A stretch of DNA of 64,000 nucleotides from Escherichia coli (GTDB taxonomy: Bacteria > Pseudomonadota > Gammaproteobacteria > Enterobacterales > Enterobacteriaceae). The notes under the pieces were generated by a model that had not been told where the DNA came from, ran no database searches, and saw only the letters and a list, made by a program, of their open reading frames with translations. Positions 3,377 through 19,077 of the stretch are shown here, piece by piece (positions within the stretch are counted from its first letter, which is position 1; each line of letters opens with the position of its first letter). The stretch lies in the NCBI RefSeq assembly GCF_044324785.1, contig NZ_CP172127.1. The stretch is one strand, 5' to 3'. The translations under genes were made by a program, and so were the position numbers.

Positions 3377-4116
3377 GTAACTGGCCTTATCCCCGCATCG
3401 TCGCCCATCGTGGCGGCGGTAAACTGGCCCCGGAAAACACCCTGGCGGCAATCGACGTGGGGGCAAAATACGGTCATAAGATGATCGAATTTGACGCGAA
3501 GTTATCGAAAGATGGCGAGATCTTCCTGCTCCATGACGACAATCTCGAACGTACCAGCAACGGCTGGGGCGTCGCGGGTGAACTGAACTGGCAGGATTTA
3601 CTACGCGTGGATGCGGGCAGTTGGTACAGCAAAGCGTTTAAAGGTGAGCCGCTGCCGTTGCTTTCGCAGGTGGCGGAACGCTGTCGCGAACACGGGATGA
3701 TGGCGAATATCGAAATCAAACCCACCACTGGCACCGGGCCATTAACGGGCAAAACGGTGGCGCTGGCGGCACGCGAACTGTGGGCCGATATGACGCCGCC
3801 GCTGCTGTCATCGTTTGAGATTGATGCTTTAGAAGCTGCACAACAGGCGGCACCGGAACTGCCGCGCGGTTTATTGCTTGATGAGTGGCGCGACGACTGG
3901 CGAGAACTGACCGCGCGGCTGGGCTGCGTCTCTATTCATCTCAATCATAAGTTGCTCGATAAAGCGCGAGTGATGCAGTTGAAAGACGCCGGATTACGGA
4001 TTCTGGTTTATACCGTCAATAAACCCCAGCGCGCGGCAGAGTTGCTGCGCTGGGGCGTGGATTGCATCTGTACCGATGCGATTGACGTGATTGGTCCGAA
4101 CTTTACGGCCCAATAG
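3373..4116 (+). CDS. ugpQ: cytoplasmic glycerophosphodiester phosphodiesterase
   Basis: 247 aa, GP-PDE motif HRGG, overlaps ugpC stop. Confidence 0.9.
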
Positions 4117-4543
4117 TTTTCAACGGAATATCAGGCTGCGGCGTGCTGGGCTGATTCAGCATGTCGCCGTTTCTCCTCTCCGGCAGCATATGCTGCTGAT
4201 TCAACGAACTATCCGGATTACGGTTGCTGTTTAACATCCCGCCGTTGGTGTTGGGCAGCATTTGCTGCCGGGCGGGATTTCGCTCCCCCGGCTGTGACTG
4301 CAACACCCGCTGAGAATTATTGTTTATCTGGTTTTCTAAATGCTGTTGTTGCAACTGAGTTTGCGTTTTCAGTTGCTGATTCAGCATCCCTTTTTGCTGG
4401 ATTTGCTGCGTTTGCATTTGAGTCTGCATCCGCTGCTGGCTGGGGATCTGATATCCCGGCTGGTTGGGGTTGTTCAGAGTATTAATGGGCTGTGCAAAGC
4501 CGACAAACGGCAGGAGTGCCGTAAGAATCAGAAGTCGTTTCAT
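4103..4543 (-). CDS. yhhA: secreted Gln-rich protein of unknown function
   Basis: 146 aa, N-terminal signal peptide [19 protein letters not shown]-rich low-complexity body; convergent 14-nt overlap with ugpQ 3' end. Confidence 0.8.
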
Positions 4544-4662
4544 CGCGTATCCTCCTCTGAAGATATTCTTTAAGTTTACTCCTTTCCTGCAATCATCAGG
4601 ATTAATTCAGAGTTATATACCAGGCTTAGCTGGGGTTGCCCCTTAATCTCTGGAGAATAACG

Positions 4663-6408
4663 ATGATAAAACCGACGTTTTTACGCCGGGTGGCCATTGC
4701 TGCTCTGTTCACAGGAAGTTGTTTTAGTACGGTAGCCGCGCCACCTGCGCCGTCTCCTGTTTCTTACGGCGTGGAGGAAGATGTCTTTCATCCGGTACGC
4801 GCGAAACAGGGGATGGTGGCGTCTGTAGATGCTACTGCCACTCAGGTGGGGGTGGATATCCTCAAGGAGGGCGGGAATGCCGTTGATGCCGCCGTGGCGG
4901 TGGGCTACGCGCTGGCGGTAACGCATCCGCAGGCGGGGAATCTGGGCGGCGGTGGTTTTATGTTAATCCGCTCGAAAAATGGCAACACCACGGCGATTGA
5001 TTTCCGCGAAATGGCACCCGCCAAAGCGACCCGGGATATGTTCCTTGATGATCAGGGCAACCCGGACAGCAAAAAATCACTCACTTCGCATCTGGCCTCC
5101 GGCACGCCCGGTACGGTCGCTGGTTTCTCGCTGGCGTTGGATAAATACGGCACTATGCCGTTGAACAAAGTGGTGCAGCCAGCGTTTAAACTGGCACGCG
5201 ATGGTTTTATCGTTAACGACGCGCTGGCTGACGATCTCAAAACCTACGGGAGCGAAGTGCTGCCGAATCACGAAAATAGCAAAGCTATCTTCTGGAAAGA
5301 GGGCGAGCCGCTGAAAAAGGGCGACAAGCTGGTGCAGGCGAACCTGGCAAAGAGCCTGGAGATGATTGCCGAAAACGGCCCGGACGAATTCTACAAAGGC
5401 ACGATAGCGGAACAGATTGCCCAGGAGATGCAGAAAAACGGTGGCTTGATCACGAAAGAAGATTTAGCGGCGTATAAAGCGGTCGAACGTACACCGATTA
5501 GCGGCGATTATCGCGGGTATCAGGTTTACTCGATGCCACCGCCATCTTCCGGCGGGATCCATATCGTACAAATCCTCAATATTCTGGAAAACTTCGATAT
5601 GAAGAAATACGGCTTTGGCAGCGCCGACGCGATGCAAATCATGGCAGAAGCTGAGAAATACGCCTACGCCGACCGCTCGGAATATCTTGGCGACCCGGAT
5701 TTTGTCAAAGTCCCGTGGCAGGCGCTGACCAATAAAGCCTATGCCAAATCTATTGCCGATCAAATCGATATCAATAAAGCGAAGCCGTCCAGTGAGATTC
5801 GCCCTGGCAAGCTTGCGCCTTATGAGAGTAATCAAACTACCCATTACTCTGTAGTGGATAAAGACGGTAACGCGGTGGCGGTGACCTATACGCTGAATAC
5901 CACCTTCGGTACGGGCATTGTCGCGGGCGAGAGCGGTATTTTGCTCAATAACCAGATGGATGATTTCTCCGCCAAACCGGGCGTGCCGAACGTTTACGGG
6001 CTGGTGGGCGGTGATGCCAACGCCGTCGGGCCGAACAAACGTCCGCTGTCATCGATGTCACCAACCATTGTTGTGAAAGACGGTAAAACCTGGCTGGTGA
6101 CTGGTAGCCCTGGCGGTAGCCGGATTATCACCACCGTGCTGCAAATGGTAGTGAACAGCATCGATTATGGCATGAATGTCGCCGAAGCGACCAATGCACC
6201 GCGTTTCCACCATCAGTGGTTGCCGGACGAGCTGCGCGTCGAGAAAGGATTTAGCCCGGATACGCTCAAACTGCTGGAAGCAAAAGGTCAGAAAGTGGCG
6301 CTGAAAGAGGCGATGGGCAGCACACAAAGCATTATGGTTGGGCCGGACGGCGAGTTGTACGGCGCATCCGATCCGCGCTCGGTGGATGATTTAACGGCGG
6401 GGTATTAA
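4663..6408 (+). CDS. ggt: gamma-glutamyltranspeptidase
   Basis: 580 aa starting MIKPTFLRR, signal peptide, catalytic Thr region QTTHYSVVD; upstream in-frame ATG 4636 judged an ORF-track extension. Confidence 0.92.
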   Translation: MIKPTFLRRVAIAALFTGSCFSTVAAPPAPSPVSYGVEEDVFHPVRAKQGMVASVDATATQVGVDILKEGGNAVDAAVAVGYALAVTHPQAGNLGGGGFMLIRSKNGNTTAIDFREMAPAKATRDMFLDDQGNPDSKKSLTSHLASGTPGTVAGFSLALDKYGTMPLNKVVQPAFKLARDGFIVNDALADDLKTYGSEVLPNHENSKAIFWKEGEPLKKGDKLVQANLAKSLEMIAENGPDEFYKGTIAEQIAQEMQKNGGLITKEDLAAYKAVERTPISGDYRGYQVYSMPPPSSGGIHIVQILNILENFDMKKYGFGSADAMQIMAEAEKYAYADRSEYLGDPDFVKVPWQALTNKAYAKSIADQIDINKAKPSSEIRPGKLAPYESNQTTHYSVVDKDGNAVAVTYTLNTTFGTGIVAGESGILLNNQMDDFSAKPGVPNVYGLVGGDANAVGPNKRPLSSMSPTIVVKDGKTWLVTGSPGGSRIITTVLQMVVNSIDYGMNVAEATNAPRFHHQWLPDELRVEKGFSPDTLKLLEAKGQKVALKEAMGSTQSIMVGPDGELYGASDPRSVDDLTAGY

Positions 6409-13659: not shown

Positions 13660-15000
13660 GTGACTACATTAACGCTTGTTTTAACAGCAGTAGGGTCTGT
13701 TTTACTGCTGCTGTTTTTAGTCATGAAGGCGCGTATGCACGCTTTCCTGGCTTTGATGGTGGTGTCCATGGGGGCTGGCCTTTTTTCCGGTATGCCGCTC
13801 GATAAAATCGCAGCGACGATGGAAAAAGGGATGGGAGGCACCCTCGGCTTTCTGGCGGTGGTTGTCGCCCTGGGAGCCATGTTTGGCAAGATCTTACATG
13901 AAACCGGCGCAGTCGATCAGATTGCCGTCAAAATGCTCAAATCCTTCGGTCACAGCCGCGCGCATTATGCCATCGGCCTTGCGGGGCTGGTCTGTGCGCT
14001 GCCGTTGTTCTTTGAAGTGGCGATTGTTCTGCTGATTAGCGTTGCTTTCTCAATGGCGCGCCACACCGGTACGAACCTGGTGAAGCTGGTAATCCCATTA
14101 TTCGCAGGCGTGGCGGCAGCGGCTGCGTTCCTGGTGCCGGGGCCTGCGCCAATGCTGCTGGCATCGCAGATGAACGCCGACTTTGGCTGGATGATCCTGA
14201 TTGGCCTGTGTGCGGCAATTCCGGGAATGATTATTGCCGGGCCGCTGTGGGGTAATTTCATCAGCCGCTACGTGGAGTTGCATATTCCTGACGACATCAG
14301 CGAACCACATCTCGGTGAAGGCAAAATGCCGTCCTTCGGATTCAGCCTGTCGCTGATCCTGTTGCCACTGGTGCTGGTGGGGCTGAAAACCATTGCCGCG
14401 CGCTTTGTGCCGGAAGGCTCTACCGCTTACGAATGGTTCGAGTTTATTGGTCATCCGTTTACCGCGATTCTGGTTGCTTGTCTGGTAGCAATTTATGGCC
14501 TGGCAATGCGTCAGGGTATGCCAAAAGACAAAGTGATGGAAATTTGTGGTCACGCGCTGCAACCGGCGGGGATCATTCTGCTGGTGATTGGTGCAGGCGG
14601 CGTGTTCAAACAGGTGCTGGTTGACTCTGGCGTAGGTCCGGCACTGGGCGAAGCGTTAACCGGCATGGGCCTGCCGATTGCCATCACCTGCTTCGTGCTG
14701 GCAGCTGCAGTGCGCATCATTCAGGGTTCTGCCACCGTTGCCTGTTTAACGGCGGTGGGACTGGTGATGCCGGTTATTGAACAACTGAACTATTCCGGAG
14801 CGCAAATGGCGGCGCTGTCGATTTGTATCGCCGGTGGTTCGATTGTTGTCAGCCACGTTAACGACGCCGGTTTCTGGTTGTTCGGTAAATTTACCGGCGC
14901 GACTGAAGCCGAAACACTGAAAACCTGGACCATGATGGAAACCATCCTCGGCACTGTCGGTGCTATCGTTGGGATGATTGCGTTCCAACTGTTGAGTTAA
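13660..15000 (+). CDS. gntU: low-affinity gluconate:H+ symporter
   Basis: 446 aa GntP-family permease; GTG start 3 bp after gntK stop. Confidence 0.88.
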   Translation: MTTLTLVLTAVGSVLLLLFLVMKARMHAFLALMVVSMGAGLFSGMPLDKIAATMEKGMGGTLGFLAVVVALGAMFGKILHETGAVDQIAVKMLKSFGHSRAHYAIGLAGLVCALPLFFEVAIVLLISVAFSMARHTGTNLVKLVIPLFAGVAAAAAFLVPGPAPMLLASQMNADFGWMILIGLCAAIPGMIIAGPLWGNFISRYVELHIPDDISEPHLGEGKMPSFGFSLSLILLPLVLVGLKTIAARFVPEGSTAYEWFEFIGHPFTAILVACLVAIYGLAMRQGMPKDKVMEICGHALQPAGIILLVIGAGGVFKQVLVDSGVGPALGEALTGMGLPIAITCFVLAAAVRIIQGSATVACLTAVGLVMPVIEQLNYSGAQMAALSICIAGGSIVVSHVNDAGFWLFGKFTGATEAETLKTWTMMETILGTVGAIVGMIAFQLLS

Positions 15001-15012
15001 TTACTGCGACAA

Positions 15013-15038
15013 ATTACTGCGAGCTTGCTCGCAGTAAT
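15013..15038 (+). terminator. gntU terminator hairpin
   Basis: attactgcgagc-tt-gctcgcagtaat palindrome followed by T-rich tract; preceded by a direct copy ttactgcga. Confidence 0.6.
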
Positions 15039-15139
15039 TCATTTCTCTTTTCTCCTGTCTTCATCTTTTTGATCTCTCTCGCAAATTTACCTGCTAATAA
15101 TCCGTTCTAATCACTGCCTAAAGATCGCAGGAGATAAAG

Positions 15140-17236
15140 ATGGAAAAGCACGGAGCTGAATTGCTTTTACAGCGGATGTTAGGAAATACCACCGCTACTT
15201 TCAGGGAAGGGCAATGGGAAGCCATAGATGCAGTGGTTAATCAGCGGCGAAAACTGCTGGTTGTACAGCGCACCGGCTGGGGGAAAAGTGCCGTGTACTT
15301 CATCGCCAGTAAAATCTTCCGAGATCGCGGCGCTGGCCCGACAATTATCATCTCTCCTTTGCTTGCCCTGATGCGTAACCAGGTTGCCGCCGCTGAACGG
15401 TTAGGTATTACGGCTGAAACGTTGAATTCTACAAACAGGGAAGAATGGCAGCGCATTAGCGATAAGTTGCTGCAAGGTGAGGTCGATTGCTTGCTGGTTT
15501 CCCCGGAACGATTGGCAAACCAGGACTTTATCGAAACGGTTTTATATCCTATAGCCGATCGTATTGGCTTGCTTGTGGTCGACGAGGCGCACTGCATCTC
15601 TGATTGGGGCCACGATTTTCGCCCGGATTACCGACGTATATTAGATATTTTGCGCCAACTGCCTGCGAATACCCCTGTTCTGGGTACAACCGCGACAGCG
15701 AATAACCGTGTTGTTGAGGATATCCGTCAGCAATTGGGTGACATTGTGATTCAGCGTGGAACGCTGGCTCGCGAAAGTTTGGCGCTTGATGCCTTAGTCT
15801 TAGGAGAACAGTCATCCCGTCTGGCATGGTTAGCAACGGTTATCCCTCAGTTTTCCAAATCGGGAATTGTTTATACCCTGACGACTCGCGATGCTGAACT
15901 TGTCGCCGAGTGGTTAAGGAAAAATGGTATCAGTGCATTTGCTTACTACAGCGGCGTGACTTGTGAAGGCGCGGAAGATTCTAATACTGCCAGGGAATAT
16001 CTGGAGCAGGCACTGCTGGCAAATAAAATCAAAGTGCTGGTCGCGACGACGGCATTAGGTATGGGGTTTGATAAACCTGATTTAGGTTTCGTCATTCATT
16101 ATCAGATGCCGGGGTCTATTGTCGGTTACTACCAACAGGTGGGGCGTGCCGGTCGTGCTATAGATTCCGCAGTTGGCATATTGCTTTGTGGTGGTGAAGA
16201 CCGCGCTATTCATCAATTCTTCCGTGAAAGCGCCTTTCCTGCGGAGGCGCAAATTCATGAAATACTCAACGTACTTAGCGAGAATGACGGTCTTACCCTA
16301 CGAGGCATTGAACAACGGACGAATCTTCGTTATGGGCAAATAGAAAAAGCACTGAAATTATTGGTAGCGGAAAATCCATCGCCTGTGGTGTATACCGAGA
16401 AATTATGGCGCAGAACTATCGTCAGTTTTTCTCCTGATCATGAACGAATTAACCATTTGATGAATCAGAGAAAAAGTGAGCTGGCAGACGTTGAAAGCTA
16501 TATCACGACCAAGGAGTGCAAAATGCAATTTCTGCGCCGTGCACTCGATGAGCCAAGTGCCGAACGTTGTGGTAAATGTAGCAGTTGTCTTCAGCATCCG
16601 TTATTGTCGCCCGACATTGATAGCGGCTTACTCCATGCGGCAAATTTATTTATTAAACACGCTGACCTGCCGTTAAATCTCAATAAACAGGTGGCAGCTG
16701 GGGCTTTTACGCAATACGGATTTAAAGGGAACTTGCCTGCGGGTTTACAAGGATCTACGGGGCGAATCCTTTCTCGTTGGGGAGATTCCGGGTGGGGAAA
16801 GCAGGTAGCACAGGAGAAAAAAACGGGGCGCTTCAGTGATGAGCTGGTAGAAGCATGTGCGGAAATGGTTCGCCAACGCTGGAATCCGCATCCTGAACCA
16901 ACCTGGGTATGCTGCGTTCCTTCATTAAGGCACCTCGACCTGGTTCCTGATTTTGCCCGGCGACTGGCGGCGAAACTTGGCTTACCTTTTATTGATGCCA
17001 TTGAAAAAGTCGTGGACAATCCACCGCAGAAAATGCAGCAAAACCGTTTTCACCAGTGTCAAAATCTCGACGGGGCGTTTGTGATTACCCCTCCTTTGAT
17101 GCCAGGTCCGGCGTTGCTGGTTGACGATATCGTGGATTCTGCATGGACGCTGACAGTTCTGACAGCACTGTTACGCCAGGCAGGTTGCCCGACGGTTTAT
17201 CCTCTTGCCCTTGCTTCTACCTCGGTAAAAAATTGA
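15140..17236 (+). CDS. RecQ-family DNA helicase fused to a C-terminal ComF-like phosphoribosyltransferase (PRTase) domain
   Basis: 698 aa; FREGQ motif 0, Walker A TGWGKS, DEAHCISDWGHDFRPDY, ATTALGMGFDKPD, QQVGRAGR, Cys cluster CK..CGKCSSC; C-terminal ...NLDGAFVIT...ALLVDDIVDSAWT aligns with ComF/GntX PRTase fold; good SD aggag upstream. Confidence 0.85.
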   Translation: MEKHGAELLLQRMLGNTTATFREGQWEAIDAVVNQRRKLLVVQRTGWGKSAVYFIASKIFRDRGAGPTIIISPLLALMRNQVAAAERLGITAETLNSTNREEWQRISDKLLQGEVDCLLVSPERLANQDFIETVLYPIADRIGLLVVDEAHCISDWGHDFRPDYRRILDILRQLPANTPVLGTTATANNRVVEDIRQQLGDIVIQRGTLARESLALDALVLGEQSSRLAWLATVIPQFSKSGIVYTLTTRDAELVAEWLRKNGISAFAYYSGVTCEGAEDSNTAREYLEQALLANKIKVLVATTALGMGFDKPDLGFVIHYQMPGSIVGYYQQVGRAGRAIDSAVGILLCGGEDRAIHQFFRESAFPAEAQIHEILNVLSENDGLTLRGIEQRTNLRYGQIEKALKLLVAENPSPVVYTEKLWRRTIVSFSPDHERINHLMNQRKSELADVESYITTKECKMQFLRRALDEPSAERCGKCSSCLQHPLLSPDIDSGLLHAANLFIKHADLPLNLNKQVAAGAFTQYGFKGNLPAGLQGSTGRILSRWGDSGWGKQVAQEKKTGRFSDELVEACAEMVRQRWNPHPEPTWVCCVPSLRHLDLVPDFARRLAAKLGLPFIDAIEKVVDNPPQKMQQNRFHQCQNLDGAFVITPPLMPGPALLVDDIVDSAWTLTVLTALLRQAGCPTVYPLALASTSVKN

Positions 17237-18438
17237 TGAATCTTTCAGCCAATGCACAAGCGACTCTCCTGCTAACCAGCGATTTTTCTCGCGCGGCGGC
17301 GAGTGAGTATAAACCTCTTAGTAATAGTGAATGGGGGAAGTTTGCATTATGGCTGAAGCACCAACGTATCAGTCCCGCCGATCTTCTGGTACCGCAACCG
17401 CAAGAGAAACTTACAGGCTGGAGCGATCCGCGTATTTCTCAGGAGCGTATTCTTGGCTTGCTGGCGCGTGGTCATAGTCTGGCGTTGGCGGTAGATAAGT
17501 GGCAACGCGCCGGATTATGGATCTTAACCCGCGGAGATGCCGATTATCCCGTTCGCTTGAAAAACCGATTGCGAACGGATGCTCCTCCCGTTTTATTTGG
17601 CTGCGGGAATAAAGCATTATTGCAAGCGGAAGGTATGGCGATTGTTGGCTCGCGAGATGCTCCGACTGACGATTTGCGCTATACCCAACAACTGGCAGCG
17701 AAACTGGCCCAACAGGGGATTTGCGTTATCTCTGGTGGTGCGCGAGGTATTGATGAATGTGCAATGGCGTCGGCACTGGAGGCCGGGGGAACTGCCGTTG
17801 GCGTATTAGCTGATAGCTTGTTAAAAACGAGCACGTTAGTGAAATGGCGTGAAGGGCTTATAGCAGGCAACCTGGTGTTGATTTCACCGTTTTACCCAGA
17901 GGTACGTTTCACTGTCGGCAATGCGATGGCGCGGAATAAATATATTTATTGCCTTGCTGAAAGCGCAATGGTTGTACGTGCGGGAATGACCGGTGGAACG
18001 ATAACCGGAGCGATGGAGGCGTTAAAACATCAGTGGCTGCCTGTTCTGGTTAAACCAAATCAGGATGTGCAATCAGCCAATTCACGATTAGTAGAAAATG
18101 GGGCGTCATGGAGTGCTGAACAGGCTGAGAATGTGACGATCAGACTGCCAGATGTTCCTGGGCTGATGTATGACAGAGCACTCCGTAACGCTCAACCAGA
18201 ATTGTTTTCGCTGCTCGAAGATGACGCAAATTACGCAGTAATGCCCGCGCATACCCCTGTCGATTTTTATCAACTCTTTGTGGCGGAACTGGCGATCCTT
18301 GCAAAGGAATCGATAAGTATTGAAAGGCTGGCGTCTTGTACTGGTTTAACCATCGAACAAATTAGTGTGTGGCTGAACCGCGCAGAAGAAGAGGGAAGGG
18401 TTATCCGATTGGGCGAAGGTCATTATCAGTTCAGGTAA
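17236..18438 (+). CDS. DprA/Smf-like DNA-processing protein paralogue
   Basis: 400 aa from MNLSANAQ; YPVRLKNRLRTDAPPVLFGCGN, IVGSRDAPTDDLRYTQQLAAKLAQQGICVISGGARGIDECAMASALEAGG Rossmann DprA core, C-terminal winged-helix-like tail; start shares 1 nt with the helicase stop (TGATG). Confidence 0.8.
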   Translation: MNLSANAQATLLLTSDFSRAAASEYKPLSNSEWGKFALWLKHQRISPADLLVPQPQEKLTGWSDPRISQERILGLLARGHSLALAVDKWQRAGLWILTRGDADYPVRLKNRLRTDAPPVLFGCGNKALLQAEGMAIVGSRDAPTDDLRYTQQLAAKLAQQGICVISGGARGIDECAMASALEAGGTAVGVLADSLLKTSTLVKWREGLIAGNLVLISPFYPEVRFTVGNAMARNKYIYCLAESAMVVRAGMTGGTITGAMEALKHQWLPVLVKPNQDVQSANSRLVENGASWSAEQAENVTIRLPDVPGLMYDRALRNAQPELFSLLEDDANYAVMPAHTPVDFYQLFVAELAILAKESISIERLASCTGLTIEQISVWLNRAEEEGRVIRLGEGHYQFR

Positions 18439-18440
18439 TA

Positions 18441-18478
18441 AAACAGGTGCCGCGTCTGGTTGTGTGCAGCACCTGTTT
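18441..18478 (-). terminator. yhgN terminator hairpin
   Basis: aaacaggtgc ... gcacctgttt 10-bp inverted repeat, T-run on minus strand. Confidence 0.55.
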
Positions 18479-18483
18479 GAACC

Positions 18484-19077
18484 TTACCCCTTCATCCACA
18501 TTCGAATCCCGTCGAGGAACATCTGGGTTGCCATCATCACCAGAATCAATCCCATCAGGCGTTCAAGTGCATTCACCCCTTTCTCGCCGAGCAGACGTAA
18601 AAATAGCGAAGACTGTAGCAGGATGACAAAGGTGCCACCCCAGGCCAGCAGCAGAGCAATTACCAGATGTCCCATCTGATTCGGGTACTGATGAGACAAC
18701 AACATCAGCGTGGCGAGAATAGTCGGCCCGGCGACTAACGGAATTGCCAACGGCACGATAAACGGCTCTTCACCTGCCGGAAGCCCGCTGCTATTTCCTG
18801 AAGCACTGGGGAAAATCATCTTAATGGCGATCAGAAACAGAATGATGCCGCCAGAAATGGAGACGGTTTCTGCCCGCAGGCTAAGAAATGCCAGAATTTT
18901 CTCACCCGCAAACAGGAACACCAGCATCACCAGGAGAGCAATAAGCAACTCTCGCACCATGATTGCCCGCCGTCTTTTCGGTTCAGTATGTTTCAGTACG
19001 GACATGAAAATAGGTAGGTTTCCGAGCGGATCCATAATCAGGATCAATAAAACTGCTGCAGAAATGATTTCATTCAT
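18484..19077 (-). CDS. yhgN: MarC-family inner membrane protein
   Basis: 197 aa polytopic ORF, conserved position beside asd. Confidence 0.85.
   Translation of the reverse strand: MNEIISAAVLLILIMDPLGNLPIFMSVLKHTEPKRRRAIMVRELLIALLVMLVFLFAGEKILAFLSLRAETVSISGGIILFLIAIKMIFPSASGNSSGLPAGEEPFIVPLAIPLVAGPTILATLMLLSHQYPNQMGHLVIALLLAWGGTFVILLQSSLFLRLLGEKGVNALERLMGLILVMMATQMFLDGIRMWMKG

Follow-up and report, generated by a model that had tools for sequence, protein, structure and literature searches.

A psyrTA (rqlHI) operon, probably with its own non-coding ends, as one of two alleles of the gntU–yhgN slot in Escherichia coli

The segment at positions 15001–18483 of the window, i.e., the whole 64,000-nucleotide stretch of E. 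coli DNA analyzed here, is in all likelihood a psyrTA operon with its own non-coding ends, and it represents one of two alleles of the slot between gntU and yhgN. On the same reading, the hairpin at the 5′ end is part of the module, the short repeat beside gntU is a product of slippage, and the two alleles are exchanged via the flanking core genes. The module would open with the 5′ hairpin, some 16 nt past the gntU stop codon, continue with a leader of roughly 140 nt that includes a Shine-Dalgarno sequence and then with psyrT and an overlapping psyrA, and close with a 3′ hairpin that faces yhgN. Within E. coli, the two states, with and without the module, would have been swapped by homologous recombination through the flanking core genes, and several enterobacterial genera would long have had the same module in this place. 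The system is already known, and the junction is ordinary and well explained. The original prediction of a precise cassette gain or loss at a terminator-bounded hotspot was borne out in part: we found a sharp presence/absence polymorphism between core flanks in a variable slot, but the cassette does not sit between terminators that were there before it.

The cassette between gntU and yhgN can be identified from its sequence as the published two-gene toxin–antitoxin and anti-phage operon psyrTA (= rqlHI). The first gene, psyrT or rqlH (15140–17236, plus strand), encodes a 698-aa RecQ-like helicase with a C-terminal phosphoribosyltransferase (PRTase) domain, the toxin. The PADLOC model for PsyrT aligned with residues 3–697 of 698, i.e., over the full length, at 1068 bits, and the Pfam domains DEAD and Helicase_C were matched. 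The Pfam Pribosyltran match was weak and under the Pfam cut-off (E = 4.5e-4, 20 bits); PF00156 is on record for many PsyrT homologues of 65–72% identity. The protein has the make-up of the PsyrTA/RqlHI toxin, a RecQ-like superfamily-2 helicase with a C-terminal PRTase domain. The second gene, psyrA or rqlI (17236–18438, plus strand), encodes a DprA-like (SLOG) antitoxin of 400 aa when counted from the likely ATG at 17236. Like the partner gene of PsyrTA/RqlHI, it is the next gene downstream on this strand and shares bases with the toxin gene, here in a TGATG stop/start overlap at 17234–17238. The PADLOC model for PsyrA scored 665 bits with an alignment from residue 32 of the long open reading frame, Pfam DNA_processg_A (DprA/SLOG) scored 171 bits, and PADLOC ShosA was a secondary match at 95 bits. 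The longest psyrA reading frame, the one annotated by RefSeq, begins at 17143. Because RqlI has been reported as 400 aa and the PADLOC alignment opens at residue 32, the gene probably starts at the ATG at 17236, and the RefSeq start is probably too far upstream. No other open reading frames than psyrT and psyrA were found in the segment 15001–18483, and the GC3 of the cassette is 0.46, compared to 0.58–0.62 in the flanking genes.

The system has been characterized before. ExPEC RqlH and RqlI are 698 and 400 aa long, their genes are co-transcribed, and both are missing from MG1655 (Russell & Mulvey 2015, PMC4670107). For RqlH and RqlI of E. coli F11, which have the same sizes as the proteins here, toxicity, neutralization, and physical interaction were demonstrated, and the toxicity of RqlH was due to the PRTase domain (PMC4670107). 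The name PsyrTA comes from Sberro et al. 2013. PsyrTA, alias RqlHI, is among the toxin–antitoxin pairs that defend against phage, as found with cloned systems (Millman et al. 2022, bioRxiv 10.1101/2022.05.11.491447). Protection by native E. coli PsyrTA was undetectable in one study, and one RNA-seq study reported well-correlated PsyrTA expression patterns across E. coli strains with this genomic context. In O157:H7 and M25631H, psyrT is a pseudogene and psyrA is intact. Genes annotated as "hypothetical" RecQ family helicase and DprA between gntU and yhgN can thus be read as rqlHI/psyrTA, which is mainly an annotation tidy-up.

The flanks of the cassette are conserved core genes, with gntU (gluconate transporter; 13660–15000, plus strand; Pfam GntP_permease at 561 bits and RefSeq annotation of matching genomes) on the left and yhgN (MarC/NAAT family; 18484–19077, minus strand; Pfam MarC at 222 bits) on the right. 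Alignment with insert-free genomes placed both breakpoints at stop codons. On the left, homology to the empty allele stops at base 15000, the last base of the gntU TAA stop (14998–15000); on the right, it restarts at 18484, with the yhgN stop (TTA on the plus strand, 18484–18486). Detailed alignment of five occupied alleles, O157:H7 and a B2 strain among them, showed the same junctions in each. The empty allele has the 56-bp spacer gtttgttcGCCCGGTAGttgtgacgCTACCGGGttcttttcgaaaaactctcctcg between the stop codons of gntU and yhgN, and the 3483-bp segment 15001–18483 is allelic to it. This spacer, a REP-like palindrome by comparison with the REP consensus, forms a single hairpin, GCCCGGTAG...CTACCGGG, with a T-tract (TTCTTTT) on the gntU strand in K-12, E. 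albertii, and others. A 101-nt probe over the left junction found the occupied allele in 1650 of the 5426 complete E. coli genomes (~30%), and a probe over the K-12 empty site found the empty allele in 3773 of the same genomes. The locus is essentially biallelic in E. coli.

The two alleles share nothing: no sequence from 15001–18483 occurs in the empty allele, and no sequence of the 56-bp spacer occurs in the occupied one. Local alignments of the spacer with either cassette end scored the same as shuffled sequence, and neither of the cassette-edge hairpins is present in the spacer. Thus, neither hairpin is "native," and the original identification of the two hairpins as the native gntU and yhgN terminators has to be given up, as both are absent from the empty allele and its spacer has one different hairpin. 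The cassette replaces the whole 56-bp spacer together with its REP-like terminator, from stop codon to stop codon. With the entire spacer replaced by the module, both breakpoints come to lie exactly at the flanking stop codons. A tight fit between flanking terminators is therefore no proof of insertion between pre-existing ones; this cassette seems to have come with hairpins of its own, which took the place of the native one.

A short direct repeat marks the gntU side of the cassette. The copy of the left hairpin arm described in the original prediction is real, but it is longer than claimed, and its coordinates were off by one base. The 11-nt sequence AATTACTGCGA occurs on the plus strand at 14999–15009, where its first two bases are the AA of the gntU TAA stop, and again at 15012–15022, where it is the left arm of the hairpin, so that the tandem unit is 13 bp. 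It is the sole close direct repeat of at least 11 nt (period 11–20) in the 64-kb window, compared to an average of 0.23 in shuffled sequence. The junction probe matched full-length and ungapped at ≥97% identity in 1649 of the 1650 occupied E. coli genomes, all of which keep two copies. The exception is strain HB6, with a single copy, gagTTAATTACTGCGAGCTTGCTCGCAGTAATTC, and a leader of 126 nt. In its frameshifted psyrT annotation and its PsyrA protein accession, HB6 agrees with an O157:H7 strain that has two copies, which indicates that its single copy is a secondary contraction; such a collapse to one copy fits replication slippage. The 13-bp duplication is missing from the homologous junctions of other genera among the gntU-linked psyrTA loci examined, and the AATTACTGCGA repeat is missing from empty sites. 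The repeat is best read as a slippage-prone 13-bp tandem duplication within cassette-specific sequence. The duplication would have been born in the E. coli lineage of the cassette, beginning with the final AA of the stop codon and reaching into the left hairpin arm, and would be able to contract again. At one of the junctions outside E. coli, that of locus L092, TTACTG directly follows the stop codon, and the junction has a 7-nt repeat of its own, CTGTTGC-at-CTGTTGC.

We considered whether the cassette is a mobile element that was placed by a transposase or integrase, the repeat on the gntU side being a target-site duplication or an attachment remnant. The sharp boundaries and the uniqueness of the repeat in the window would suit such an origin, as would the different cargo in the slot of other species, which in one case includes an integrase fragment. 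However, both copies of the repeat lie on one side of the cassette, 13 nt apart, and the repeated sequence is missing from the empty site. In the occupied allele, the native 56-bp spacer has been deleted rather than split or duplicated. There is therefore no target-site duplication. The ends are not linked by repeats either, as no direct or inverted repeat pairs were found between 15001–15060 and 18430–18483, and open reading frames, Pfam, and PADLOC revealed no transposase, integrase, or recombinase gene in the segment. A signature of transposition or site-specific integration is absent at the cassette. The repeat is confined to allele-specific sequence, is missing from empty sites and from the orthologous junctions of other genera, and is contracted in HB6; it therefore marks neither a target-site duplication nor a breakpoint, contrary to the insertion signature implied by the original prediction. 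Placement as a mobile element is effectively refuted.

The 5′ hairpin directly follows gntU. The palindrome originally described at 15013–15038, ATTACTGCGAGC-tt-GCTCGCAGTAAT, is present, and its arms extend further, to a perfect 13 bp (AATTACTGCGAGC at 15012–15024 and GCTCGCAGTAATT at 15027–15039; hairpin 15012–15039, plus strand). Its RNA fold has an energy of −18.1 kcal/mol (z = −4.6), and the core of the hairpin is CTGCGAG-N4-CTCGCAG at 15017–15034. A consensus scan classed the hairpin as terminator-like, with 12 pairs and the tail CATTTCTCTT, beginning 12 nt past the gntU stop; in sequence terms, this is a stable stem-loop followed by a T-rich tract downstream of a gene, as in intrinsic terminators. 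In E. coli, the stem has an A/T-rich base next to the T-tract, which itself is broken by a C; Silvania has a poor T-tract after the hairpin.

The hairpin is conserved in position and in pairing. It lies 16–18 nt past the gntU stop in every gntU-linked psyrTA locus examined, namely those of Citrobacter freundii, Silvania, Klebsiella grimontii, and four metagenomic or other contigs. Across a set of only 8 sequences from about 5 lineages, 94% of cells were paired over the 13 pairs, and 6 of the 13 pairs had changes on both sides, a result matched by none of 500 shuffles. When the partners were slid by 1–3 columns as a control, pairing fell to 19–55%. These compensatory changes point to pairing that is maintained by selection. 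The changes are concentrated in the outer stem: the seven inner pairs, i.e., the core, were invariant in 6 of the 8 distinct sequences, and the outer five pairs all covary. Among these outer pairs, the innermost changes from A-T to G-C, the next two swap between T-A, A-T, C-G, or G-C, and the outer two between A-T and T-A. A core with at most one mismatch was confined to psyrTA-occupied loci; the occupied locus L097 has a core with two mismatches at the same position after gntU. On these sequence comparisons, the hairpin appears to belong to the cassette module and to travel with it. As the only candidate gntU terminator in the occupied allele, and one that fronts a toxin gene, it is most simply read as an insulating intrinsic terminator. 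Most likely, gntU transcription now ends at this hairpin, which would protect the toxin gene against read-through.

The leader downstream of the hairpin agrees with the original description of a T/C-rich stretch before a Shine-Dalgarno sequence. Positions 15040–15128 (plus strand) are 71% T+C, compared to 49% for the window, and AGGAG at 15129–15133 (plus strand) lies 6 nt ahead of the psyrT ATG at 15140. The length of the leader, 139–144 nt, is conserved among gntU-linked psyrTA loci, and the cross-genus alignment revealed a conserved TTGAT box (15069–15073) and a conserved TAA (15109–15111) within TCTAAT (15106–15111). A consensus scan of the plus strand in 15040–15139 found no consensus sigma-70 promoter; the best sigma-70-like candidate was the weak TTGATC-18-GCTAAT at 15069–15098. 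A weight-matrix scan of eight orthologous leaders returned only weak candidates that were not consistently conserved, and in these leaders the conserved TTGAT box has no conserved −10 partner. As no promoter was found in the leader, psyrT may be expressed partly by read-through from gntU. A search of 14800–18700 against Rfam gave no RNA family match at E values up to 1.

The invariance of the inner pairs beside the covarying outer pairs hints at an additional, sequence-specific role for the 5′ hairpin. The palindrome CTGCGAG-N4-CTCGCAG (duplex CTGCGAGCTTGCTCGCAG) could be mainly a DNA operator for a dimeric regulator, e.g., for autoregulation by the HTH domain of PsyrA/RqlI, and not, or not only, an RNA terminator. 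Type II antitoxins often bind palindromes, which speaks for an operator, as does the invariance of seven inner pairs in 6 of 8 sequences when the rest of the leader has strongly diverged and only the outer stem covaries. RqlI also carries an HTH domain that is required for its function (PMC4670107), and Pfam HTH_26 matched PsyrA here weakly (E = 0.047). In contrast, the compensatory changes in the outer five pairs reflect selection on pairing rather than on sequence. The palindrome also lies 100–125 nt 5′ of the ATG, upstream of any plausible promoter, and directly after a gene that needs a terminator, with a T-rich tail behind it, and the psyrTA copies inside type I restriction-modification operons have no such palindrome. 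We therefore consider a main role as an operator unlikely. Similarly doubtful, though it would make the hairpin more than an ordinary terminator, is the view that it is a dedicated cis-element of a position-locked enterobacterial psyrTA lineage, either an RqlI operator or an attenuator that meters gluconate-inducible gntRKU read-through into the toxin gene. If the attenuator reading were true, the 13-bp duplication in E. coli would shift the hairpin clear of a ribosome terminating on gntU.

The right edge of the cassette carries a second hairpin. It is an inverted repeat at 18441–18478 between the convergent psyrA and yhgN, and it starts 2 nt past the psyrA stop codon (18436–18438), as originally noted for the DprA-like gene. 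The hairpin folds at −18.9 kcal/mol on the plus strand and −21 kcal/mol on the minus strand. The sequence TTTTATTA comes after it on the minus strand, which makes the hairpin the likely yhgN terminator. Its sequence is identical over the five occupied E. coli alleles except for one base in B2. Four of the five other gntU-linked loci examined have a different GC-rich hairpin between psyrA and yhgN, and in locus L092 the psyrA–yhgN gap is 15 nt with no hairpin. The 3′ hairpin is conserved in function, not in sequence. We also considered a kinship between the left and right hairpins, as CTGCG...CGCAG is common to both in Citrobacter-like loci and in L097; the shared motif is too short and is absent in E. 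coli, and the idea was dropped.

The gntU–yhgN gap is a true variable slot at the family level. In a GntU scan with one genome per species, the distance between gntU and yhgN ranged from 48 to 6171 bp over 80 enterobacterial loci. The cargo found elsewhere includes a RelE/HTH toxin–antitoxin pair, a set of AIM24, metallophosphoesterase, and ASCH proteins, a Wzz-like protein, an outer-membrane beta-barrel protein, a PAAR toxin island with an integrase fragment, and a chaperone-usher fimbrial operon. Klebsiella grimontii and Silvania hatchlandensis have homologues of psyrTA in this slot. Among the contexts retrieved for PsyrT homologues of at least 69% identity (Citrobacter freundii and four metagenomic or other contigs), all lie directly downstream of gntU in the same orientation and with a leader of 139–144 nt. 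Homologues of at most 66% identity lie elsewhere, in type I restriction-modification operons or beside an IS91-family transposase gene, and in these contexts without gntU linkage the leader and the hairpin are absent upstream of psyrT. The Klebsiella cassette also begins at the gntU stop and replaces a native ACCCGGC...GCCGGGT terminator. The 11-nt repeat AACCCTTGCCA flanking the K. grimontii cassette was considered as a duplication and dropped, as its right copy is largely native Klebsiella sequence.

The cassette has co-diverged with its flanks over a long time, as judged from similar synonymous divergence and mirrored identity clusters. Between the window and a B2 strain, i.e., within E. 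coli, dS was 0.13 for gntU, 0.10 for psyrT, and 0.06 for psyrA; between two Citrobacter-like loci, the values were 0.56, 0.57, and 0.62, respectively. Between genera, dS of the cassette was saturated, and dS of gntU was 0.7–1.0. The identity clusters of psyrT mirror those of gntU, and neither the dS values nor the clusters gave a sign of recent transfer between genera. The REP-like empty spacer is alignable among E. coli, E. albertii, and Citrobacter. Together with the long co-divergence of the cassette, this cross-genus spacer makes both alleles look old. A recent import of the cassette from a divergent donor was rejected, as there are no occupancy-linked flank haplotypes; occupied and empty strains share them up to the stop codon. 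The flanks of the occupied B2 clone D i14 and the empty B2 strain DSM 30083 are near-identical, and those of the occupied Ec1119 and the empty E2865 match. Flank SNP haplotypes that are unlinked to occupancy are what allele exchange by homologous recombination predicts.

How the two alleles first arose is a separate matter. We lean toward an original gain, with one ancient insertion that was followed by exchange, over an ancestral presence with repeated loss, because no scars were found and the REP-like spacer is widely distributed. No hairpin core by gntU and no fragments of psyrT or psyrA were detected in about 70 other species whose slot is empty or holds other cargo. The competing history, in which Enterobacteriaceae had psyrTA here from the start and a deletion produced the empty allele of E. 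coli, is improbable, but it is the strongest of the alternatives considered here. The same position, orientation, and hairpin spacing in several genera would follow naturally from it, as would the mirrored psyrT and gntU clusters and the equal within-clade dS of cassette and gntU. Nevertheless, most of the 80 species representatives have no psyrTA, and their empty slots hold no remnant of the cassette or the hairpin. A deletion would also not recreate a REP-like spacer that is alignable among E. coli, E. albertii, and Citrobacter, and the cassette GC3 is well under that of the flanks.

The searchable literature yielded no publication naming both gntU and yhgN. Neither did we find there the stop-to-stop replacement, the cassette-borne covarying hairpin, the position-locked enterobacterial clade, or the 13-bp slippage unit. 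Two leads emerge from the junction. The first is the 5′ hairpin that always occurs with gntU-linked psyrTA, conserved and covarying around a palindromic core that is invariant. The second is the natural variation between one and two copies of the 13-bp unit, which bears on the insulation of the toxin gene from upstream transcription.

The non-coding parts of the locus and its position can be compared with known elements. Like REP elements, the empty spacer is a GC-rich palindrome, and its Citrobacter version, in which the palindrome is present in one or two copies, ends in ...CCGGGCCTAC, a tail typical of REP. In contrast, the hairpins of the occupied allele are unrelated in sequence to the palindrome of the empty allele. 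The arrangement also resembles that in a published study of defense hotspots, in which a minority of strains carry a defense system at one set place between two core genes. Here, however, there are no mobile-element genes, and only a single type of occupant is seen in the E. coli slot. Hotspots of up to three genes were classed as "empty" in that study, which would thus have passed over a two-gene insert such as psyrTA; its main text mentions neither gntU nor yhgN.

At the level of the system, the cassette matches RqlHI/PsyrTA of ExPEC in the gene pair, the gene order, the protein sizes (698 and 400 aa), the overlap, and the absence from K-12 MG1655, and the full length of both PADLOC models, PsyrT and PsyrA, is matched. 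We found no system-level difference, and the cassette can be taken to be that operon. ShosTA is similar in combining a DprA-like antitoxin with a toxin that has a PRTase domain, but ShosT lacks the RecQ-like helicase domain, and PADLOC ranks PsyrTA first here. A different arrangement is hsdM-hsdS-psyrT-psyrA-hsdR, found in Proteus and on an E. coli IncF plasmid, where PsyrT is 61–66% identical and the gene order and overlap are the same. Unlike the gntU-linked operon, psyrT in these type I restriction-modification operons follows hsdS by 14–16 bp, which leaves it without a leader or hairpin and not as a stand-alone unit. The psyrTA operons linked to gntU form a separate clade, with at least 69% identity and their own non-coding ends.

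The psyrA start codon probably lies downstream of its annotated position. RefSeq places the start at 17143, giving a product of 431 aa and an overlap of 94 nt with psyrT, and the PADLOC alignment to the product of this annotated ORF begins at residue 32. Orthologues called in other genera are 394–401 aa long, with 401 aa in three of them, and RqlI as published has 400 aa (PMC4670107). From the PADLOC alignment, the orthologue lengths and the published RqlI length, translation probably begins at the ATG at 17236, which would form a TGATG overlap with psyrT.

psyrT itself has decayed in some strains. In O157:H7 it is a pseudogene (3541–5665 in the numbering of that allele, L004): 1 bp is deleted near window position 15655, and 29 bp of the PRTase region are tandemly duplicated near 16927. 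In strain M25631H, psyrT is instead interrupted by an internal stop. In both cases psyrA is intact. A broken psyrT beside a whole psyrA is the pattern of decay expected of a toxin-antitoxin pair.

Over ~50 nt directly upstream of the psyrT start, the phylogroup B2 allele is strongly diverged from all other alleles (window 15126–15139 versus 3527–3541 in the B2 locus L005). This stretch takes in the Shine-Dalgarno surroundings and the candidate −10; the hairpin and the remaining leader are identical to those of other alleles. The difference suggests a lineage-specific shift in expression signals. The 13-bp unit, which is repeated in tandem from the gntU stop into the left arm of the 5′ hairpin, is single-copy in E. 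coli HB6 alone among the 1650 genomes with psyrTA in the slot (L095 3495–3530, NZ_CP040305.1). With one unit, the hairpin stem of HB6 starts within the gntU stop codon, making this strain a natural variant suited to asking whether hairpin spacing matters. In Citrobacter-like loci and L097, the 3′ and 5′ hairpins of one locus have in common a short motif, (G/A)CTGCG...CGCAG(C/T), found in the 3′ hairpins of L088 (7305–7340), L096 and L097 (6284–6318); this sharing is absent in E. coli, and the motif is too short for any interpretation.

An 11-nt sequence, AACCCTTGCCA, flanks the Klebsiella grimontii psyrTA cassette on either side (L030 8342–8352 and 11833–11843). The right-hand copy matches native Klebsiella sequence, at which empty relatives differ at two positions, and the pair could reflect chance or microhomology. 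Several genomes of Citrobacter, Enterobacter, Leclercia and Kosakonia also share a conserved minus-strand ORF of 146–149 aa between gntU and yhgN (L018 8437–8883; L092 8143–8589; also L032, L035, L046, L055 and L071). This ORF has no Pfam match. At most of these loci it immediately follows gntU; in L055 and L092 it lies downstream of other cargo.

psyrTA pairs also occur between hsdS and hsdR of type I restriction-modification operons, in Proteus (L093 and L094), in L099 and in L105, the E. coli IncF plasmid NZ_OX030731.1 (37352–40869). The PsyrT proteins of these embedded pairs are more distant, at 61–66% identity, and the intergenic space is nearly nil. The type I restriction-modification operon is a separate, recurrent context of the same psyrTA system.
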